A stretch of 64,000 bases of DNA from Candidatus Aminicenantes bacterium (GCA_963807525.1 CAWECI010000025.1:95056-159055), one strand, 5' to 3'. Shown: positions 6,639 through 56,800, numbered from the stretch's first letter. Notes: generated by a model from the letters alone, not told the origin. A program made the numbers and translations.

Positions 6639-6686
6639 TCAGTATGGAAGCGCAAGCTCCCGAGATTCTCCGGAAAGGAGGCGAAG

Positions 6687-30092: not shown

Positions 30093-30629
30093 ATGAAGAA
30101 GATCCCAGGCGTCCCTGCCCTCGCGGCTCCCGTCGCTATCCTCGCCCTTGTCCTGGCGGCCGCCCTGCCCGGACAGAACTCCACGTATGTCGGCGCCCAG
30201 AAGTGCGCCCTATGCCACAAGGCGGACGCGCGCGGCGCGCAATATAAGATCTGGCAGAACAGCCGGCACTCCAAGTCCTTTGAGGCCCTGCAGTCGCCCA
30301 AGGCCGCGGAGGCCGCGAAGTCCATGGGCGTCGATAAGCCGGCCGAAAGTCCGCAGTGCCTCAAATGCCATGTTCCGCTCTTCGACAAGGCCCCCGAGAT
30401 CAAGGAGGAGGGCGTCACCTGTGAAGTTTGCCACGGCCCAGGCAGCGCCTACCGGAAACTCCCCGTCATGCAGGACCGGGCCAAGGCCGCGGCGAACGGC
30501 CTCATCCTCTATGGCGGCCCGGACGCCATCAAGGCCCAGTGCCTGACGTGCCATGCCGACGCCCACGGCATCAAGTTCGATTTCGAGGCTTCCTGGGCCA
30601 AGATCAAGCACCCGATCCCCGGCAAGTGA
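30093..30629 (+). CDS. Exported tetraheme cytochrome c (c554-like)
   Basis: Signal peptide; CALCH, CLKCH, CEVCH, CLTCH; YVGAQKC, EGVTCEVCHGPGS. Confidence 0.9.
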   Translation: MKKIPGVPALAAPVAILALVLAAALPGQNSTYVGAQKCALCHKADARGAQYKIWQNSRHSKSFEALQSPKAAEAAKSMGVDKPAESPQCLKCHVPLFDKAPEIKEEGVTCEVCHGPGSAYRKLPVMQDRAKAAANGLILYGGPDAIKAQCLTCHADAHGIKFDFEASWAKIKHPIPGK

Positions 30630-30639
30630 ATCCGCCCGG

Positions 30640-31290
30640 ATGAACGAAACCGCGAAGGCGAGCCCGCTCGCCGCCCTCCTGTTCGCCGGGCTCCTTGCCG
30701 CCGTCGCTCCGGTCTCTTCGTCGCCCGTTCCCCAAGAGGACGCGACCTGTCTCCATTGCCATGCCCGCCCCGGGCTCAAGTCCGAGTCGGGGCAGACGGT
30801 CTATGTTGACGGGAACGTCTATGACGCTTCGGTCCACGGCCAGGCCGGCGTCAATTGCGTCGACTGCCATCGCGAGCTCAAAGATGTGAAGCAGCTCCCC
30901 CATGCCAAGGGCCTCGCGGCCGTGAGGTGCGCGGACTGCCATGCGGATTACGCGCGGACCACGACGGGCGGCGTCCATGACACCTGGAGTCCCCGGCTGG
31001 AGGCCGCCCCGGTGCTCTGCAGGGACTGCCACGGCGGCCATGATATTCTTCCATCGTCGGACCCTCGCTCGACCGTCACTCCCGCCAGCCGCCCGGCGAC
31101 CTGCGGTCGATGCCACCCCGGTGCCGGCCCGAATTTCGCCCGGGGCCGGGTCCACGAACTCGGCGGGGCCGCCGGGCGGACTCCGGCCGGAGTGGTCCGG
31201 ATCCTCTATAAGGCCCTGATCGCTATCATGGGCGCCTTTTTCCTGGCTTATATCGCCGCCGACCTCATTCGTTCCCGGAGGCGGCCATGA
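30640..31290 (+). CDS. Pentaheme cytochrome c with C-terminal membrane anchor
   Basis: CLHCH, CVDCH, CADCH, CRDCH, CGRCH; PGAGPNFARGRVH; TM ILYKALIAIMGAFFLAYIAAD. Confidence 0.9.
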   Translation: MNETAKASPLAALLFAGLLAAVAPVSSSPVPQEDATCLHCHARPGLKSESGQTVYVDGNVYDASVHGQAGVNCVDCHRELKDVKQLPHAKGLAAVRCADCHADYARTTTGGVHDTWSPRLEAAPVLCRDCHGGHDILPSSDPRSTVTPASRPATCGRCHPGAGPNFARGRVHELGGAAGRTPAGVVRILYKALIAIMGAFFLAYIAADLIRSRRRP

Positions 31291-32042
31291 GGGCGCCGGC
31301 CGTCGATCCCGGAATTCTCATTCCCGACGACGAGGTCTTCGTCCGCATGACCCTGACCGAGCGCTGGCAGCATGGCCTTCTGATGGCCTCGTTCGTTCTT
31401 CTCATCCTGTCCGGACTCCCCGTTCTCTCGGAAGACATTGAGGTCATCCGGCTCCTCGCCGGCCGGGCCGCGACTTTCACCGTGCGCGGTCTTGTCCACC
31501 GGGCCGCGGCCGTCCTCCTCATCCTCGACCTCGTTTGGCAGCTGGCCTACACGTTCTTCACCCCCCGCGGCAGGCAGAACCTGCGGGACCGGAAATGGCG
31601 CCGCCAGGATACGCGCGACGCCCTGGCCGTTTTCCGTCCCCTGGCGCCGCGGCCCGAGTTCGACCGCTACAGCTTCGCGCAGAAGTTCGAGTACTGGGCG
31701 CTCATCTGGGGCTCGGCCGTCATGATCGTCACGGGCGCCTTGATGTGGCTCCCGAGCCTGTCCCTGTCGCTCTTCCCGCTCTGGCTCCATCAGGTCTTCG
31801 TCGTCGTCCACGGCTACGAAGCCATCCTGGCTTTTGTGGCCATCCTCGTCTGGCACATGTACACGGCCCACCTCGATCCCGAGATCTTCCCGATGAGCGG
31901 GGTCTGGCTCAACGGCCGGATGACCGGCGCCGAGCTGAAGCGCTTTCACCCCCTCGAGCACCGCCGCCTCCTGGAGAGCCGGGACCGACTCCATCGCGAG
32001 CTCTTGGCCCCGAAAAATGCTATGATGAACGGCAAGGAATAA
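31287..32042 (+). CDS. Di-heme cytochrome b subunit (FdnI/HydC-like)
   Basis: Four TMs with His ligands (WQHG, VHRA, VHGY, WHMY); KFEYWALIWG; ATGA overlap. Confidence 0.85.
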   Translation: MRAPAVDPGILIPDDEVFVRMTLTERWQHGLLMASFVLLILSGLPVLSEDIEVIRLLAGRAATFTVRGLVHRAAAVLLILDLVWQLAYTFFTPRGRQNLRDRKWRRQDTRDALAVFRPLAPRPEFDRYSFAQKFEYWALIWGSAVMIVTGALMWLPSLSLSLFPLWLHQVFVVVHGYEAILAFVAILVWHMYTAHLDPEIFPMSGVWLNGRMTGAELKRFHPLEHRRLLESRDRLHRELLAPKNAMMNGKE

Positions 32043-32066: not shown

Positions 32067-32657
32067 ATGGGAGCTCCGACGAGAGCGAACGAGCAACCGG
32101 AGGATGCCGTCCTCGTCCGGAAAGCCCAGCAGGGAGACATGGACGCTTACGAGAGCCTGGTCCGGAGATACCAGCAACGGGTCTACGCCCTGTGCCGCCG
32201 TCTGACCGGCGCGCACCAGTCGGCGGACGACCTGGCCCAGGAAACGTTCATCAAAGCTTATTTCGCGCTGGCCCGCTTCGACGCCCAATGGCCGCTCTAT
32301 CCCTGGCTTCGGAGGATCGCCGTCAACACCGGGCTGAACTACCTCAAGACCCGGGGCCGGGAAAGGTCCCTCGAGGACGGCCCGGCCGACGGCCGGCGCC
32401 TGCCGCCGGCCCCGGCGACCGACGATCCCGTGGATCGGCTCGAAAGCGCCGAATTCCAGGCCAGGCTCGACTGGGCGGTGGATTCCCTTCCCGCCGACCA
32501 GAGAAGCGTCTTCGTCCTGAGATTCCATGAGAGCCTGAGCTACGAGGAGATCGGAAGGACCCTCGGACTGCCGCTCGGCACCGTCATGTCGCGGCTGAAC
32601 CGGGCCCGCCAGAAGCTGAAAGAGCTTCTCGCGGATTCCCTCGGAAGGGGAGCTTGA
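32067..32657 (+). CDS. ECF RNA polymerase sigma factor
   Basis: ADDLAQETFIKAY, WLRRIAVN, LSYEEIGRTLGLPLGTVMSRLNRAR. Confidence 0.93.
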   Translation: MGAPTRANEQPEDAVLVRKAQQGDMDAYESLVRRYQQRVYALCRRLTGAHQSADDLAQETFIKAYFALARFDAQWPLYPWLRRIAVNTGLNYLKTRGRERSLEDGPADGRRLPPAPATDDPVDRLESAEFQARLDWAVDSLPADQRSVFVLRFHESLSYEEIGRTLGLPLGTVMSRLNRARQKLKELLADSLGRGA

Positions 32658-32658
32658 G

Positions 32659-33657
32659 ATGAGACACCGCAAACTCCAGGAACTCATCGGGGCCTACGCC
32701 GATGGCGAGCTCCGGCCGGCCGACCGGCCGCGGGTGGAGAAGCATCTCAAGCGCTGCCCGGACTGCCGGCGGGACCTCGAGTTCATCCGCCGTCTTTCGA
32801 AACTCGCCGAGACGCCTCCGACGGGACCTCAGGACAGGGACTACTGGGACTCTTTCCCCGGACGGGTCCGGGCCGGGATCGCCCGCGAGCTGGCCGGAGC
32901 CCCCGCACCCCAAGTTGCGGAGGACAAGATGTTCAAAGACTCATTCTTCCAGCCGGAACCGCGGACACGGCAGAGGGCCCTGCTCCTGCCGCTGTCCGTC
33001 ATCGGCCATGCGGTCGTTCTGATCCTGCTCATCATGCTGCCCCTTCTCAAGATGGGGCAGCTGCCGACGGTCGAGGTCTATAGCGCGTTCCTGGCGCCCC
33101 CGCCGCCGCCCCCGCCGCCTCCGCCGCCGCCGGCCAAGCGGAAAGCGTCGGCGCAAAGCGCCCGGATCAAGCGCGTCCAGGCCGCCGCGCCGACCGAGGC
33201 CGGCCGCCTGGTGGCCCCCGTCGAGATCCCCGAACAGATCGCTGAGGAAACGCTCTCCGACGTCGGCGTCGAGGGCGGTGTCGAAGGCGGCGTCGAGGGC
33301 GGCGTCGTCGGCGGCGTTCTCGGAGGCGTTGTGGGCGGCGTCCTGGGCGGCGTCGTCGGCGAGGTCGAGGCGCCGGTGCGGGCCATCGGCGACGTCAAGC
33401 CGCCGAAGCTCGTGCGGGAGGTGGCGCCGGTCTACCCGGAGATCGCCCGGCAGGCCCGGGTGGAGGGCATCGTCATCGTCGAGGCGACGACGGACGTCTA
33501 CGGCCGGGTGACGAGCGTCAAGGTCCTGCGCTCGATCCCGCTCCTGGACCAGGCGGCCATCGACGCGGTGCGGCAGTGGGTCTACGAGCCCATGATCATC
33601 AACGGCCGGCCCCGGCCGGTCGTCTTCACCGTCACCGTCCGGTTCCAGCTGAAATGA
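32659..33657 (+). CDS. Zinc-finger anti-sigma (zf-HC2) - TonB fusion protein
   Basis: AYADGEL..HLKRCPDC (HxxxCxxC); then MFKDSFF, TM with SVIGH (SxxxH), poly-Pro, GGV repeats, TonB_C. Confidence 0.88.
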   Translation: MRHRKLQELIGAYADGELRPADRPRVEKHLKRCPDCRRDLEFIRRLSKLAETPPTGPQDRDYWDSFPGRVRAGIARELAGAPAPQVAEDKMFKDSFFQPEPRTRQRALLLPLSVIGHAVVLILLIMLPLLKMGQLPTVEVYSAFLAPPPPPPPPPPPPAKRKASAQSARIKRVQAAAPTEAGRLVAPVEIPEQIAEETLSDVGVEGGVEGGVEGGVVGGVLGGVVGGVLGGVVGEVEAPVRAIGDVKPPKLVREVAPVYPEIARQARVEGIVIVEATTDVYGRVTSVKVLRSIPLLDQAAIDAVRQWVYEPMIINGRPRPVVFTVTVRFQLK

Positions 33658-42658: not shown

Positions 42659-45588
42659 CTAGTTGGATTTCTGCGCGGCGTCCTTCTTCGGGGCGGTTTC
42701 GGCCGGCCTCAAGCCCTTGGCCCGTTCCTTGAGATAGTCCTTGAGCTCGAGGTAGGGGACGCCGTCGGTCTACCAGTCCGGCGCCGGCTTGCCCATGAGG
42801 TAGTGGTCGAAGAACTCCTTCATCCGCACGGTGTAGTCCTTCTGGTTGGCCGGCTTCTGCAGGCCGTGGTTCTCGCCGACGTATTCGAGCATGACGACCG
42901 GCTTCTTGAGCCGGCGCAGCGTGTTGTAGTATTCGATGCCCTGGTTCCAGACGACCGCGCCGTCCTTGTCGTTGTGCAGGATGATGAGCGGCGTGCTTGA
43001 CCCGCTCGGCGTAGTAGACCGGCGAGTTGCGCTGGTAGGCCTCGAGGTTGTCCCAGTAGCCGCCCTTGAACCGGCCCTGGCTCGATTCGAAGATGGGCTG
43101 GTTGGCCGAGCCGGAGTTGAAGTAGATCGAGCTGTACATGCTGATCATGTTGGTCAGCGGCGCCCCGGCCACGGCCGCGGCGAAGTCGGCCTGGGTGACG
43201 AGGAACGCCGTCTGGTAGCCGCCCCAGGAGTGGCCCTGGAGCCCGACCTTGGAGCGGTCGACGACGCCCGCGGCCACGGCCGCGTCGATCGCCGGCAGGA
43301 CGCACCAGACGGCCGACATGCCCGGGTCGTTGATCTTGTAGGTGATGTCCGGCATGAGCACGGCGTAGCCGTTGCTCGTGTAGACCGACTTGTTGAAGCC
43401 GTTGGCGGAGGGCTGGGCGTACCGGTTGAGCTGCTGGGACATCTTCTCGTAGAAATAGACGATCGTCGGGTAACTCTTGCCCTTCTCGTAGTTGGCGGGC
43501 AGGAAGAGGGCGGCCTGGAGCGGCTTGTCCAGGCCGCTCTTGGGATCCGTCTTGTAGTCGAGGAGCATGGACCCGCTCGACCACAGGAAGTCCTTCTGCT
43601 GGGGGTTGGCCTCGGTCAGGCGCCGGCCGTTCCCGAGCCCGGCGTCCGCGGCGTAGTAATCGGGATAGTCCTTGTAGGTGTCGCGGGTGTAGAGATAGAC
43701 GTCGGCCTTCTTGGCCTTCATCAGGCCGCCGAAGCCGGCGTCGTCCCAGAGGAGAAGGGTCGGGGCCGTCCGGCCCTTGTCGAGCCGGGCGAAGCCCGCC
43801 TTCTTCGTCCATTCGCCGTAGACGCCGAAGTACTGGGGCTGGGCGAGGTCGATGGCCTTCTCCTCGGGATCGAGGCGCAGGCCGCCGGTAGCGGAGCTTG
43901 TCCTTGAAGCCGTTCCCGGTCAGGTTGACGGCCTTGCCGGTCCCGCCGACGGGGACGTTCCAGACGTCCCAGCCGTCCGAGAGGAGCACGTTCAGGCCGT
44001 CCTTGGTCCAGCCGACCGGATAGTCGGGCGGCTTGACGACGTTGTGGTCGTCCTCCTCGTTGACGAACGAGGCCGGCACGTCCTTGGTGATGTTGATCGA
44101 ATGCTCGGCCGCCATGTCGAAGGTGTAGAAATGGCCGTCGTCGTAATAGAGGAAGTGGGCCCCGTCGAAGAGCGGCATGAACATGTAGCGGCACTTCTTC
44201 AGGGCCAGCGTCCGCTTGCCCGTCTTCATGTCGATGACATAGACGTCCGAGTAGTTGCGGCCGTCGAGGTTGCCGTCGAGCTCGTAGGCCCGGACGTCCT
44301 GGCCGATGGCGAACCGGTCCTTGGGCGCGGGCTCGACCTCGCGGACGTCGTCGTCGGCCAGCCGGATGAATTTTTTTTCGTCGACCCGGTATTCGGCCAG
44401 ATAGCTGAAGATTTGTCCGCGTGCTCCTCCACCTGCTGCTCGGACTGGAGGCGCTTGTCCTGGCCATGCCAGATGACCAGGTCGGGCATGTCCTCGTCGG
44501 CGATCTCGTCGTTCTTCGGAGCCGGCCGCGGCCGGGCCCTCCGGACCGGTCTTGGCGGCGTCCGGTCCCTTGGCCTCGGCGTCCTTCTTCTTCTTGGCCT
44601 CGTGGATGCCGAAGAGAACGGCGTCGAAGCTCTCGGTCCACTCGGGCGCCCGGTCCGGGCTGACGGCCATCCCGGCCGGGAAGGTCTTGTCGGCGGCCGG
44701 GTCGTAGACGATCTTGCGGGGCCCCGCGGGGTCCTTGAAGCCGCTGAAGGCGACGACGCTCCAGAGCTTGTCCTCGAAGGCCTTGTCTTCCTTGCCTTTG
44801 AGGACGGCCAGGGCTTCGCCCTTTTCCGACCAGGCCAGGGATTTGTACGAGGCCTTGTCGTCGTCCAGGGAGACGACCGAGCCGGAGCGCATGTCCCGGA
44901 GCTCGAGGCCGTTGCCCGCCTGGCCCAAGGCGTCGATGACCAGGGCCAAGTGGGCGCCCGGCTTGTCGAACGCGTATTCGGCGACGTTGCCGATATTGAC
45001 CTCTTTTCCCGAAGCGAGCTCGCGAAGCAGGAGGTCCGAGCCCGTCCACTTGTCCTTTTCCTTGTCCTGGCTCTCCGGGGCGTAGCGATGGAGGGCCGCA
45101 TAGCCCGGGTTTTCGCCCGAGAAGTCCAGTCCGCGGACCTTCTCGAATTCGGTCTTGGCCCCCGTGGCCAGGTCGACCAGCACGGCCGTCGTCTGGACCC
45201 TCTTCTTGTCCTTGCGCAGGGCCTTCATGTCCTTGGAGCCCGGGTAGGACAGGAACGCGGCCCATTTCGAATCCGCGGAGAAACCCGTCCGCAGGGGCGC
45301 GCCGTAGCGCGGCGCCTCGCCGATCGGGAACCGGTATTCCTTCGTCCCGGCGACCTGGCGCACGACGATCTCGCTCTCTCCCTCGAGCGGGCTCGTCCGG
45401 TACATGAACCAGGTCCCGTCGGGGGAGAGCTCGGCCGCGCCGATCGACTTCCAGGCCAGGATGTCCTGGAGCGCGACGGGGCGCGGGCCGGCCGGTTTGT
45501 CGCCGGCCTTGTCCTGGGCGGCGAGGAGGAGGCCGGCGAAGAGACAAGCGATGACGAGGAGGAGGAGAACGTTGCGGAGTTTGCTCAT
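42659..45588 (-). pseudogene. S9 family (prolyl oligopeptidase-like) exported peptidase, four indels plus an in-frame TAG (real decay or assembly error)
   Basis: Signal peptide; GHSWGG (Ser), HNDKDGAV (Asp), GENHG (His) spread across frames; shifts near 44521, 44412, 43881, 42995; TAG at 42770-72. Confidence 0.85.
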
Positions 45589-54441: not shown

Positions 54442-55463
54442 CGGATCGTTCGTCCTTTCAGCGCCGGGGAGGCCAGGAGCGCCGTCGCGGCCAGGAACAC
54501 GAGGCCGAAGACGGTCCAGGCGTCGGTCGCGAAGAAGAGCACGCCGCAGGTGATGATCCACAGGAACCCGAAATAGATCCACCAGCTTCTCTTGAAAAAG
54601 AGGACGCCGACGAGGATGAGGGTCAGGGCCAGGAAACCGGCCAACGCCGCGCGCAGGTCGGCCGTTTCCTTGATGATCAGGCCGGCGTAGATCGCGGGGA
54701 CGAACAGCCACAGCCCCCGGCGCTTCCTCAGGGTGATCAAGAGGGCCGCCCCCAACGCCGCGGCAGCGAATCCGAAGGTGGCCACGGCCTCGAGCCAGCC
54801 GGGGGGACCGGGCCGCCGTCCTTCCGCCAGCCTCTCGATCCTGACCATCATCGTCCTCTCCATGACGAAATGGGCCGGTTCGAGGAGCCAGAAACTGAAC
54901 AGGCGCCCTATGATCCCGGGCGGCGGACCGCCCCGGCTTCGGGCGTAGAACCGCGTCCCCCCGTCGGCCGTCGGCTCGAGGGCGAACGTGCCCCAGTTCC
55001 TGAGCGTCAGGGACTCGCCGGGCGCCACGAAGGCGACCTTCCAGCCCGGCAAGAACGTTTTTTTTGGCAGGCCGAACAGATAATCCGGCTTGACGCCGCG
55101 GACGAGGTCCTTGGCCTGCCGCGTCTGCCACTCCGGCCGGATCGCATAAGTATTGTGGATGTCCGCGAGGGTCAGGTTCTCGAGCCAGGTGTGGCTGTAG
55201 AAACCGGCCCGGTCCTGGCCGATCTGGATAAGCCATTCCCAAACCTTCGTCGGCGGCGCTTTGACGGTGATGGCCCGGGTGCCGGTGACGACGCCGCCGA
55301 TCCAGGCGTCGTCACCGAGCACGGCCCGCGTCCGCTCCTGCGGCGTCGTTCCCCAATTGGCGAAAAAGGGACGGGCCAGGAGGGAATAGGCCGCGATGGC
55401 GGCCAGGATAATAACGAAGGACGTGCCCGTGATCACGAGCCAGGTCCTCTCGGCCTTGTTCAT
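54438..55463 (-). CDS. Membrane protein with SRPBCC-like domain
   Basis: WGTTPQER, TRAITVKAPPTKVWEWLIQIGQDRAGFYSHTWLEN, HFVMER; C-terminal TMs. Confidence 0.75.
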   Translation of the reverse strand: MNKAERTWLVITGTSFVIILAAIAAYSLLARPFFANWGTTPQERTRAVLGDDAWIGGVVTGTRAITVKAPPTKVWEWLIQIGQDRAGFYSHTWLENLTLADIHNTYAIRPEWQTRQAKDLVRGVKPDYLFGLPKKTFLPGWKVAFVAPGESLTLRNWGTFALEPTADGGTRFYARSRGGPPPGIIGRLFSFWLLEPAHFVMERTMMVRIERLAEGRRPGPPGWLEAVATFGFAAAALGAALLITLRKRRGLWLFVPAIYAGLIIKETADLRAALAGFLALTLILVGVLFFKRSWWIYFGFLWIITCGVLFFATDAWTVFGLVFLAATALLASPALKGRTIR

Positions 55464-56800
55464 CCGTTGTGTCCTTTCGCCGCGGCCTTGCCGTATTCCG
55501 GGTCCCGCACGGCGCAGCCGACGTGTCTCTGGCGGCGCAGGAGGTGCGAACAGAGGGAGCACGTCGTGCAGACCTTCTTTGGCGAGAGACGGCCGTGGCG
55601 GATGAGATCGGCCGCGAAGTCCGGATAGGCGAGGGCGCCCCGGCCGAGCCCGAACGCGGCGCTGCGTCCGGCCGAGACCATGGCCGCGGCGACCCCGGGG
55701 CCGAGGGTGCGGAGCCAGGAATACCCGGCCCCCACGACCGGGGTCCAGGGCGACGACCGCTGGATCTCGGTGGCGATCCGGAGATGGCGGGCCACGCCTT
55801 CGAGCGGGTGCTCGTCCGGAAGCGGGCCGCCGGGGACGGGTTCGTCGAACGGCCGCCCGTAGTGGGACCTCCAGGCCGGGATGCCGAGGGACAAGGCCAG
55901 GAACCAGACGCCCGCCCGGGCCAGCAAGGCCACGAGGGCCTTGGTTTCCGTGAGGTCGATCCGGTCCGGGTCATCGGCGTCCATGCCGAACCCGTACGGG
56001 AAGGGGAGACAGTCCGTCGCGGAGATCCGGCTGGTGACCAGGATCCCGGGCGCTTCCTCGCGGATGTGCCGGACGATCTCCAGCAGCAGCCGGGCCCTGT
56101 TCTCGAAGGGACCGCCGTAGCGGCTGCCCTCGCGGCTGCGCGCGGCCAGCGTCTCCGAAACGAGATAGCCGTGACAGGCCTTGATATCGACGCCGTCGAA
56201 CCCCGCCGCCGCGGCCAGGCCGGCGGCCTCGACGAAATCGTCCCGGATGGCCGCCAGCTCGCCGTCGGAAACGACCAGAGCGTCGGGCGGCAGCTCGTGG
56301 AGGGGATCGAGGTGGGGGTTGTGCTGGACGATGATCGGCCGGGGTAATCCCTCGGGCTTGGCGAACCGGCCCGAATGCGTCAGCTGGAGAAGGAGGAGGG
56401 GGTTGTGACCGGCGCCCCATTCTCTGCGGGCCGCGTCCCGGGTCTCCTCGACGAGCCGGGCGAACCCCCCCTGCGTTCCTTCGGTCACCATCAGCTGGTT
56501 CGGGTTCGAGCGGCCGCCCGGCCGGACGGCGGCGGCCTCGCACCAGATCAGGCCGGCCCCTCCGGCCGCCGCCCGCCGGTAGCGGCGCCGCGTCAGATCG
56601 GAGGGTGCACCCGAGGCCTCGGCGTCCGCCCCCTCCATGGGCAGGACGGCCAGCCTGTTGGGGACCTCGCGCCCGCCGAAGAGGGCCCGGTCGAGGAGGA
56701 TCGAGATCTCGTCCTGGTAAGGGATGTCGAGTCCGAGACGCTCGGCCTCGACGCGGAGATCGCCCGCTCCCCGCAGCCGGAATCTCTCGTGCGTCGCCAC
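55460..56800 (-). CDS. NADH:flavin oxidoreductase / Old Yellow Enzyme family
   Basis: NRLAVLPMEG, LIWCEA, QLTHSGR, GFDGVDIKACHGYL, YGGPFENR, FGLGR, C-terminal CTTCSLC..C. Confidence 0.92.
   Translation of the reverse strand: MATHERFRLRGAGDLRVEAERLGLDIPYQDEISILLDRALFGGREVPNRLAVLPMEGADAEASGAPSDLTRRRYRRAAAGGAGLIWCEAAAVRPGGRSNPNQLMVTEGTQGGFARLVEETRDAARREWGAGHNPLLLLQLTHSGRFAKPEGLPRPIIVQHNPHLDPLHELPPDALVVSDGELAAIRDDFVEAAGLAAAAGFDGVDIKACHGYLVSETLAARSREGSRYGGPFENRARLLLEIVRHIREEAPGILVTSRISATDCLPFPYGFGMDADDPDRIDLTETKALVALLARAGVWFLALSLGIPAWRSHYGRPFDEPVPGGPLPDEHPLEGVARHLRIATEIQRSSPWTPVVGAGYSWLRTLGPGVAAAMVSAGRSAAFGLGRGALAYPDFAADLIRHGRLSPKKVCTTCSLCSHLLRRQRHVGCAVRDPEYGKAAAKGHNG

Follow-up and report, generated by a model that had tools for sequence, protein, structure and literature searches.

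Can a single polypeptide be both the anti-sigma factor of an extracytoplasmic function (ECF) sigma factor and a TonB, and if such a protein exists, what would it report on? The question is raised by positions 32,067 to 33,657 of a 64,000-nucleotide stretch of DNA from Candidatus Aminicenantes bacterium (GCA_963807525.1 CAWECI010000025.1:95056-159055; the whole stretch is called the window below), where an ECF sigma factor gene is followed by one open reading frame (ORF) that appears to join a zinc-finger anti-sigma domain to a TonB. An earlier note, made from this sequence, had read the gene pair as a candidate new cell-surface signalling system. The anatomy of the fusion and its regulatory link to a second tonB gene are well supported, and we regard the arrangement as a real, conserved and undescribed variant of ECF and cell-surface signalling. 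The explanation that we consider, on balance, probable is an autoregulated ECF sigma/anti-sigma switch of Candidatus Aminicenantales with a TonB paralogue for its anti-sigma factor, a switch that would report on the state of the Ton system and would induce an alternative TonB.

The fusion protein and its conservation

The ECF ORF ends in a TGA stop codon and the fusion ORF starts one nucleotide further on (Table 1), as the earlier note had described; the two genes are translationally coupled. The sigma factor consists of sigma regions 2 and 4 only, in a length close to the 200 amino acids (aa) that characterise ECF proteins. The elements that had been claimed for the fusion protein are all there: by eye one can recognise H3 and H29-x3-C33-x2-C36 of the zinc finger, S113-x3-H117 in the transmembrane helix, twelve consecutive prolines (residues 147-158) and an (x-G-G-V) repeat (205-235), and Pfam matched zf-HC2 to residues 6-37 (2.5e-11) and TonB_C to residues 256-331. 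The anti-sigma and the tonB_Cterm models of NCBIfam both match. In an AlphaFold2 (AF2) model built on 24 orthologues the N-domain is predicted to contain four helices (2-14, 23-32, 34-51 and 60-79; pLDDT 80-92), followed by a transmembrane helix (103-130), a disordered linker and a confidently modelled C-terminal domain. The latter superposes in Foldseek (TM-score 0.78-0.85) on the TonB C-terminal domains in the FoxA, BtuB and FhuA complexes. The N-domain weakly matches RslA, RsiW, ChrR and DdvA by structure, and its sequence profile, compared with the PDB, matches DdvA, RsiW, RslA, ChrR and RsrA.

By sequence profile and predicted structure, the first 80 to 90 residues are a class I zinc anti-sigma domain, helical and with a fourth ligand in addition to the H-x3-C-x2-C motif. 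What lies beyond this domain is a complete TonB, with an FxDSF motif, a transmembrane anchor carrying SxxxH with an invariant histidine, the Pro12 tract as the proline-rich periplasmic spacer, a linker and a C-terminal domain of the TonB fold. In the alignment of the 24 fusions H29, C33, C36, Y62, W63, F92, F96, P111, H117, P128 and L129 are invariant, and H3 and S113 recur in 90% or more of the sequences. The central claim of the earlier note, that the anti-sigma factor is itself a TonB, is confirmed by these features, and also by the interchangeability of its periplasmic half with that of the housekeeping TonB, which is described below.

Candidatus Aminicenantes and Aminicenantales are known solely from metagenome-assembled genomes, of which we sampled 301 from the class, using the first 150 residues of the fusion (anti-sigma domain and transmembrane helix) as query. 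This segment was matched end to end in about 98 genomes, with identities down to 33-40%, and all of these genomes belong to one order, where they represent eight families (f1-f9 except f8). Among the 31 close loci the fusion ORF was complete (330-333 aa) in 18, ran off the contig end in 13 and was interrupted in none; the 20 distant orthologues, several of them from single-contig genomes of 2.4-4.3 Mb, all measured 329-336 aa and had the same layout. No stop codon or frameshift, which the earlier note had named as a possible objection, was found in any of the 51 orthologues, all of which are full-length (329-336 aa) unless their contig ends within the ORF, and since the distant orthologues are uninterrupted as well, the objection fails. 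The ECF gene abuts the fusion ORF in 50 of the 51 loci (31/31 close and 19/20 distant); in the distant locus L079 the upstream ECF frame was not recovered. The junction is a 1-nt gap or an overlap of 1 or 4 nt, with an 11-nt gap in two loci, and among the close loci the ECF gene either ends 1 nt ahead of the fusion ORF or overlaps it by 4 nt. The ECF orthologues are 48-90% identical and invariably lie upstream of the fusion. The same uninterrupted ORF with an abutting ECF gene at nearly all loci bears out the view that chance juxtaposition is unlikely.

In databases the relatives of the fusion are named either 'energy transducer TonB' or 'anti-sigma factor RsiW'. A homologue search with the whole protein was dominated by proteins with three TonB_C domains, and one with residues 1-150 alone returned no more than two proteins, truncated or frameshifted, and was uninformative. 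When the N-terminal profile was compared with protein representatives, TonB_C was present in only 2 of the top 150 zinc anti-sigma proteins. The 50%-identity representatives of the family are fragments cut at the repeat, and for this reason a search of representatives gives no usable census outside the lineage.

A promoter sequence shared with a second tonB

The genome contains three related TonB genes: a housekeeping tonB (257 aa), located in a tonB-exbB-exbD cluster on contig C16, where exbB-exbD occupies 54799-55971, the fusion, and a stand-alone, diverged tonB of 242 aa in the window, which we call type A (tonB-A). TonB-A is approximately 54% identical to the TonB part of the fusion and 51% identical to the housekeeping TonB. 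There are also five ExbD homologues and Plug-domain transporters in the genome.

The sigma operon is preceded by a predicted ECF-type promoter, GGAATAA-N14-TGTAT (candidate sequence GGAATAATTCCCGCGACCAGGTGTAT). The statement of the earlier note that this promoter is shared with tonB-A proved correct: the motif is an exact match at both places (Table 1) and is conserved across genomes. Its GGAAT-N17-GTA core resembles the SigR/SigH type of ECF promoter. At the sequence level, this is the arrangement of an autoregulated ECF gene, with a GGAAx -35 element and a short -10 element containing GT. As the -10 element ends 5 nt before the ATG of the ECF gene, the mRNA probably has little or no leader. 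Ahead of the housekeeping tonB there is a sigma-70-like promoter, and the shared motif is absent.

The exact motif occurs at three sites in the 3.86-Mb genome, against approximately 0.04 expected (an estimate from base composition). It is found at equal distance ahead of the ECF gene in 31 of the 31 close loci, with varying spacer sequences, and in 17-18 of the 20 distant loci, where the -35 and -10 elements are kept and the spacers again vary. Ahead of tonB-A it lies at about -74 in 21 of the 22 type A starts that were recovered from 25 loci, also with varying spacers, and the tonB-A orthologues of three further genomes (G143, G190 and G177) are preceded by it as well. A scan of ten genomes for exact GGAATA(A/T)-N14-TGTAT gave 28 matches, as opposed to none for the reversed control; these sites were ahead of the ECF gene, of the mutually orthologous tonB-A genes (families f1, f4 and f5) and of a few non-conserved secreted proteins.

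The ECF gene, the fusion and tonB-A are present or absent together, both within genus g1 and across genera. Among the 24 genomes of g1 that were covered by both searches 16 have the fusion and tonB-A, two have only the fusion (these are fragmented assemblies), two have only tonB-A, and four have neither; the same four lack the ECF orthologue. In one of the genomes with tonB-A only, an ECF fragment lies beside tonB-A at a contig edge. All three genes are absent from genera g3 and g7. The distance between the fusion operon and tonB-A is usually 5-50 kb, and in three genomes (G077, G166 and G190) the two are adjacent.

Some observations on the motif and its surroundings may be added. The third exact site of the genome (G000 contig C14, minus strand, approximately 12720) lies 65 nt before the gene of a 216-aa secreted protein, a possible extra member of the regulon, which matches no Pfam family and lacks a conserved counterpart. 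In G177 a 220-aa secreted protein is encoded behind the motif; it bears a weak likeness (1e-5) to the N-domain of a three-TonB_C protein to be described below. One genome (G067) carries two copies of the entire ECF/fusion operon (C2:1426289 and C3:2077403), with the promoter motif at both. Immediately downstream of the -10 element, the 5' untranslated region of tonB-A (6639-6686) has a conserved hairpin, GGAAGC-GAAA-GCTTCC, and then AAGGAGG; the start region of the ECF gene (ATGGGAGCTCC) is related to it. There is almost no covariation in the hairpin, with one compensatory change in 16 sequences.

Repeated gene conversion with the housekeeping tonB

From residue 135 to the C-terminus the fusion is identical in protein sequence to the housekeeping TonB. 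The corresponding DNA (33061-33653 in the window and G000 C16:54153-54745) has 3 mismatches in 593 bp (99.5% identity), from which it follows that these are two distinct copies. In the 15 genomes compared, the within-genome identity of the fusion and the housekeeping copy ranges from 75% to 99.7%. A maximum-likelihood tree of the shared segment does not separate the fusion copies from the housekeeping copies, they cluster by genome instead; the tree needs ten label changes, a number equal to that obtained with shuffled labels. In six genomes the fusion and the housekeeping copy are sister pairs with 89-100% support, and in one subclade the conversion took place in the common ancestor. These two genes have undergone repeated gene conversion, in either direction, in which the transmembrane helix and the cytoplasmic domain were not exchanged: in all 15 genomes the helix of the fusion has P-x-S-x3-H, whereas that of the housekeeping TonB has P-x-A-x3-H. 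Gene conversion accounts for the higher conservation of the periplasmic half (85-95% across the order) than of the cytoplasmic domain (31-55% identical), and it is also the reason why many contigs break inside the fusion gene.

The domain swaps can be looked upon as natural experiments, which show that the sensor half and its counterpart in a genuine TonB can replace each other, and that the anchors nevertheless stay different. Judged by these sequence exchanges, the sensor half works as the periplasmic half of a real TonB.

The linker repeat EGGVEGGVEGGVVGGVLGGVVGGVLGGVVGE (33265-33363 and its equivalents in orthologues) is invariant in the 24 orthologues, which come from eight families, and is also present in the housekeeping TonB. 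Such an invariant repeat is unusual for a TonB spacer; the confidence of the AF2 model is low in this region.

Mechanism, alternatives and known systems

According to the explanation that we favour, the sigma factor would read GGAATA(A/T)-N14-TGTAT ahead of its own operon and of tonB-A, and would be held at the inner membrane by the anti-sigma domain. The transmembrane helix of the fusion would dock on ExbB-ExbD, and its C-terminal domain would meet the partners of the working TonB, i.e. ExbD and the TonB boxes of outer-membrane transporters. With such docking and shared partners the fusion would sample the state of the Ton system: the demand on it, its energisation or its integrity. Once engaged or destabilised, the anti-sigma factor would be removed, the most probable route being regulated proteolysis of the kind known for RsiW, RseA and FecR, and the freed sigma factor would make more of the module together with the alternative TonB. 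The earlier note had suggested that engagement of an outer-membrane TonB box, or loss of the proton motive force, could release the sigma factor directly. Release of the sigma factor by proteolysis seems to us at least as likely as a direct mechanical or conformational relay, and we rank it higher because, to our knowledge, every characterised single-pass anti-sigma factor of this class is released by regulated proteolysis, and because the long linker is predicted to be disordered.

It must be noted that several points weigh against this explanation. Both the recognition of the shared promoter by the sigma factor and its pairing with the fusion are suggested by position and conservation alone, and the coupling to ExbBD by one invariant histidine and a shared motif; TonB_C is widely used in non-transducer proteins of the lineage. 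Two distant operons (L074 and L079) have no recognisable promoter motif, and a 95%-complete genome (G099) has a tonB-A with the motif (C2:542608-543018) and neither an ECF orthologue nor a fusion in its assembly. Gene conversion can persist neutrally, and alone it is no proof of selection for mimicry. Finally, the relative P0151 joins a zinc anti-sigma domain to TonB_C by a generic transmembrane helix that lacks the histidine, so the TonB-type anchor is not universal. The architecture of P0151 would also suit an ordinary envelope-stress anti-sigma factor, in which TonB_C merely makes contact with the periplasm or the outer membrane, there is no ExbBD coupling, and envelope damage leads to site-1/site-2 proteolysis. 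This is possible, if rather less than probable. TonB_C-bearing non-transducers encoded in this genome, for instance the secreted three-TonB_C protein of another ECF operon, speak for it, as does the predicted disorder of the fusion linker. On the other hand, the whole TonB N-terminus (FxDSF, P-x-S-x3-H and LPLL) is conserved throughout the order although it is not homogenised by conversion, and the output of the regulon is a tonB, not typical envelope-repair genes.

Two readings give more weight to the conversion. In one, which we regard as doubtful, the fusion carries, on its own Ser-type anchor, a copy of the periplasmic half of the housekeeping TonB that conversion would keep current, and engagement, titration, de-energisation or destruction of TonB would directly free the ECF sigma factor, which would then install a diverged replacement TonB; if true, the module would perform cell-surface signalling with no receptor dedicated to it, or act as a guard or decoy for the Ton system. 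In the other, agents that hijack, titrate or destroy TonB (bacteriocins with TonB boxes, phage proteins, loss of ExbBD) would also hit the anti-sigma factor and thereby switch on tonB-A as a diverged back-up. Through repeated conversion the sensor half stays in step with the housekeeping TonB, almost perfectly in this genome, and tonB-A, which is not converted, has only about half of its residues in common with that protein. Yet neutral conversion is possible, DNA identity between the two copies is only 75-80% in distant families, and no agent that targets TonB is known for this uncultured group; we consider this unlikely. Still less probable is that the gene has two products, an internal start at Met91 yielding free TonB as well, so that the fusion would mainly serve to co-express a TonB with the sigma factor. 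M91 does align with the start of the stand-alone tonB, and GGAGG is found 4-5 nt upstream in 24 of the 26 loci that have this methionine, all but one of them from g1. However, L021 and L023 lack the GGAGG, a leucine occupies this position in the housekeeping TonB, within a longer N-terminus, and in genus g2 and in families f2 and f4 position 91 is Leu, Val or Ile; Met91 as an internal start is therefore unsupported as a feature of the family. We also considered an assembly or frameshift artefact that had joined a small anti-sigma gene to a tonB, as could be feared when the 3' half of a gene is a near-exact repeat of another locus and 13 of the 31 close contigs break inside it. It is almost certainly not the explanation: the junction of the anti-sigma domain and the transmembrane helix is in unique sequence, the same in-frame ORF was found in 51 genomes, single-contig assemblies included, and the three mismatches distinguish the two copies. 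On these grounds the artefact was rejected.

The window has further features that touch on this question or stand beside it (Table 1). The earlier note had pointed to a second operon of an ECF gene, an anti-sigma gene and TonB_C. The operon is there, but its TonB_C domains are on a separate secreted protein and not in a fusion; this three-domain protein has hundreds of homologues in Aminicenantes. Directly upstream of the sigma operon, on the same strand (30093-32042), are genes of two multihaem c-type cytochromes and a cytochrome b561-like membrane protein; they have no promoter motif, and this neighbourhood is not kept beside the operon in L001. On the minus strand a 922-aa ORF (42820-45588) starts like a normal secreted protein, the C-terminal half being Arg/Gly/Pro-rich nonsense, and overlaps long ORFs in other frames. 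It is likely to contain a frameshift or an assembly error.

Table 1. Coordinates of the features in the window, counted from its first nucleotide.
Feature	Start	End	Strand	Basis or remark
Predicted ECF-type promoter of the sigma operon, GGAATAA-N14-TGTAT	32036	32061	+	exact match, 31 nt before the ECF ATG
ECF (group IV) sigma factor, 196 aa	32067	32657	+	Pfam Sigma70_r2 5e-17, r4 2e-15; NCBIfam sigma70-ECF (TIGR02937) 3e-30, above cut-off
Anti-sigma::TonB fusion protein, 332 aa	32659	33657	+	ORF, Pfam, alignment, AF2 model
Cytoplasmic class I zinc anti-sigma domain, aa 1-80 (four helices; H3, H29, C33, C36)	32659	32898	+	zf-HC2, PDB profile matches, AF2
TonB-type N-terminus: juxtamembrane MFKDSFF, transmembrane helix with P111, S113-x3-H117, LPLL	32929	33048	+	alignment with the start of the two stand-alone TonBs
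Periplasmic half (Pro12, conserved linker, GGV repeat, TonB_C), gene-conversion tract	33061	33653	+	shared with the housekeeping tonB
TonB_C domain	33424	33651	+	Pfam 2.8e-19; Foldseek
Same promoter motif ahead of tonB-A	6613	6638	+	exact match, 74 nt before the start
tonB-A, stand-alone diverged tonB, 242 aa, putative regulon member	6687	7415	+	TonB_C 8e-18
Second ECF operon, sigma factor	46896	47468		
Second ECF operon, H-x3-C-x2-C anti-sigma with one transmembrane helix	47440	47922		overlaps the sigma gene
Second ECF operon as a whole, with the secreted 564-aa protein	46896	49631		564-aa protein: unknown N-domain, three TonB_C domains joined by GGV linkers

It is instructive to compare the proposed switch, in which the anti-sigma factor is a TonB paralogue, with systems that are already known. 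In FecI-FecR-FecA signalling of E. coli and Pseudomonas the roles of TonB, FecR-type regulator and receptor are divided among three proteins, and FecR has the FecR/DUF4880 fold and binds the STN domain of the receptor (PMC9249621). The two systems are alike in that a regulator which crosses the inner membrane once and extends through the periplasm holds an ECF sigma factor, and that the Ton system is in the signal path; they differ in that the regulator is here a zinc anti-sigma factor fused to a TonB. Pfam found no FecR/DUF4880 domain on the 332-aa fusion, and no receptor with an STN domain is adjacent to it. The window contains no Plug or FecR domain match, in agreement with the earlier note, which had seen neither a FecR-like protein nor a receptor there; the two FecR-domain ORFs of the genome lie outside the window, and the sole STN match is on contig C13. 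In Serratia marcescens, HasI, HasS and HasR are accompanied by HasB, a dedicated TonB paralogue; HasS is a protein distinct from HasB, and the signal travels by way of the receptor HasR (PMC9249621). This combination of an ECF/anti-sigma pair with a specialised TonB paralogue, encoded in the has operon, is similar to ours, except that here the anti-sigma factor is itself TonB-like and the putatively inducible TonB stands alone.

Other likenesses concern the architecture of the protein. The Dma proteins of Bacteroides are likewise single polypeptides, in which a domain that binds sigma in the cytoplasm is followed by an inner-membrane helix and by a disordered tether through the periplasm towards the outer membrane, but they end in an 8-stranded outer-membrane beta-barrel, whereas the fusion has a TonB-type anchor and a soluble C-terminal domain like that of TonB; AF2 and Foldseek gave no sign of a C-terminal beta-barrel on it. 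With RsiW, RslA, ChrR, RsrA and DdvA the fusion shares the H-x3-C-x2-C motif with an N-terminal histidine, the 4-helix domain and the location of its gene directly downstream of an ECF gene. The sensors of that class are not TonBs: RsrA has none, ChrR has a cupin, DdvA a CHAT domain and RsiW a small extracytoplasmic domain. The TonBs of E. coli and P. aeruginosa have the same transmembrane helix with SxxxH, proline-rich spacer and C-terminal fold, while the fusion has about 90 extra cytoplasmic residues, which make up the anti-sigma domain, and a GGV repeat in its linker instead of Glu-Pro/Lys-Pro repeats. A full-text literature search found no published description of an anti-sigma::TonB fusion.

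In the textbook form of TonB-dependent signalling the signal passes through a relay of three proteins. In the present case regulator and TonB form a single polypeptide, the conserved output being a further TonB. The parts (196 aa, 332 aa and a 26-bp promoter) are small enough for reconstitution in E. coli. For an uncultured phylum it is unusual to have an evolutionary argument for function such as the domain swaps between the sensor and the working TonB provide. If the proposed explanation is true, the module would be a compact, receptor-independent coupling of outer-membrane events, or of a motor driven by the proton motive force, to transcription, and would show how a cell monitors its own machinery for energising the outer membrane.

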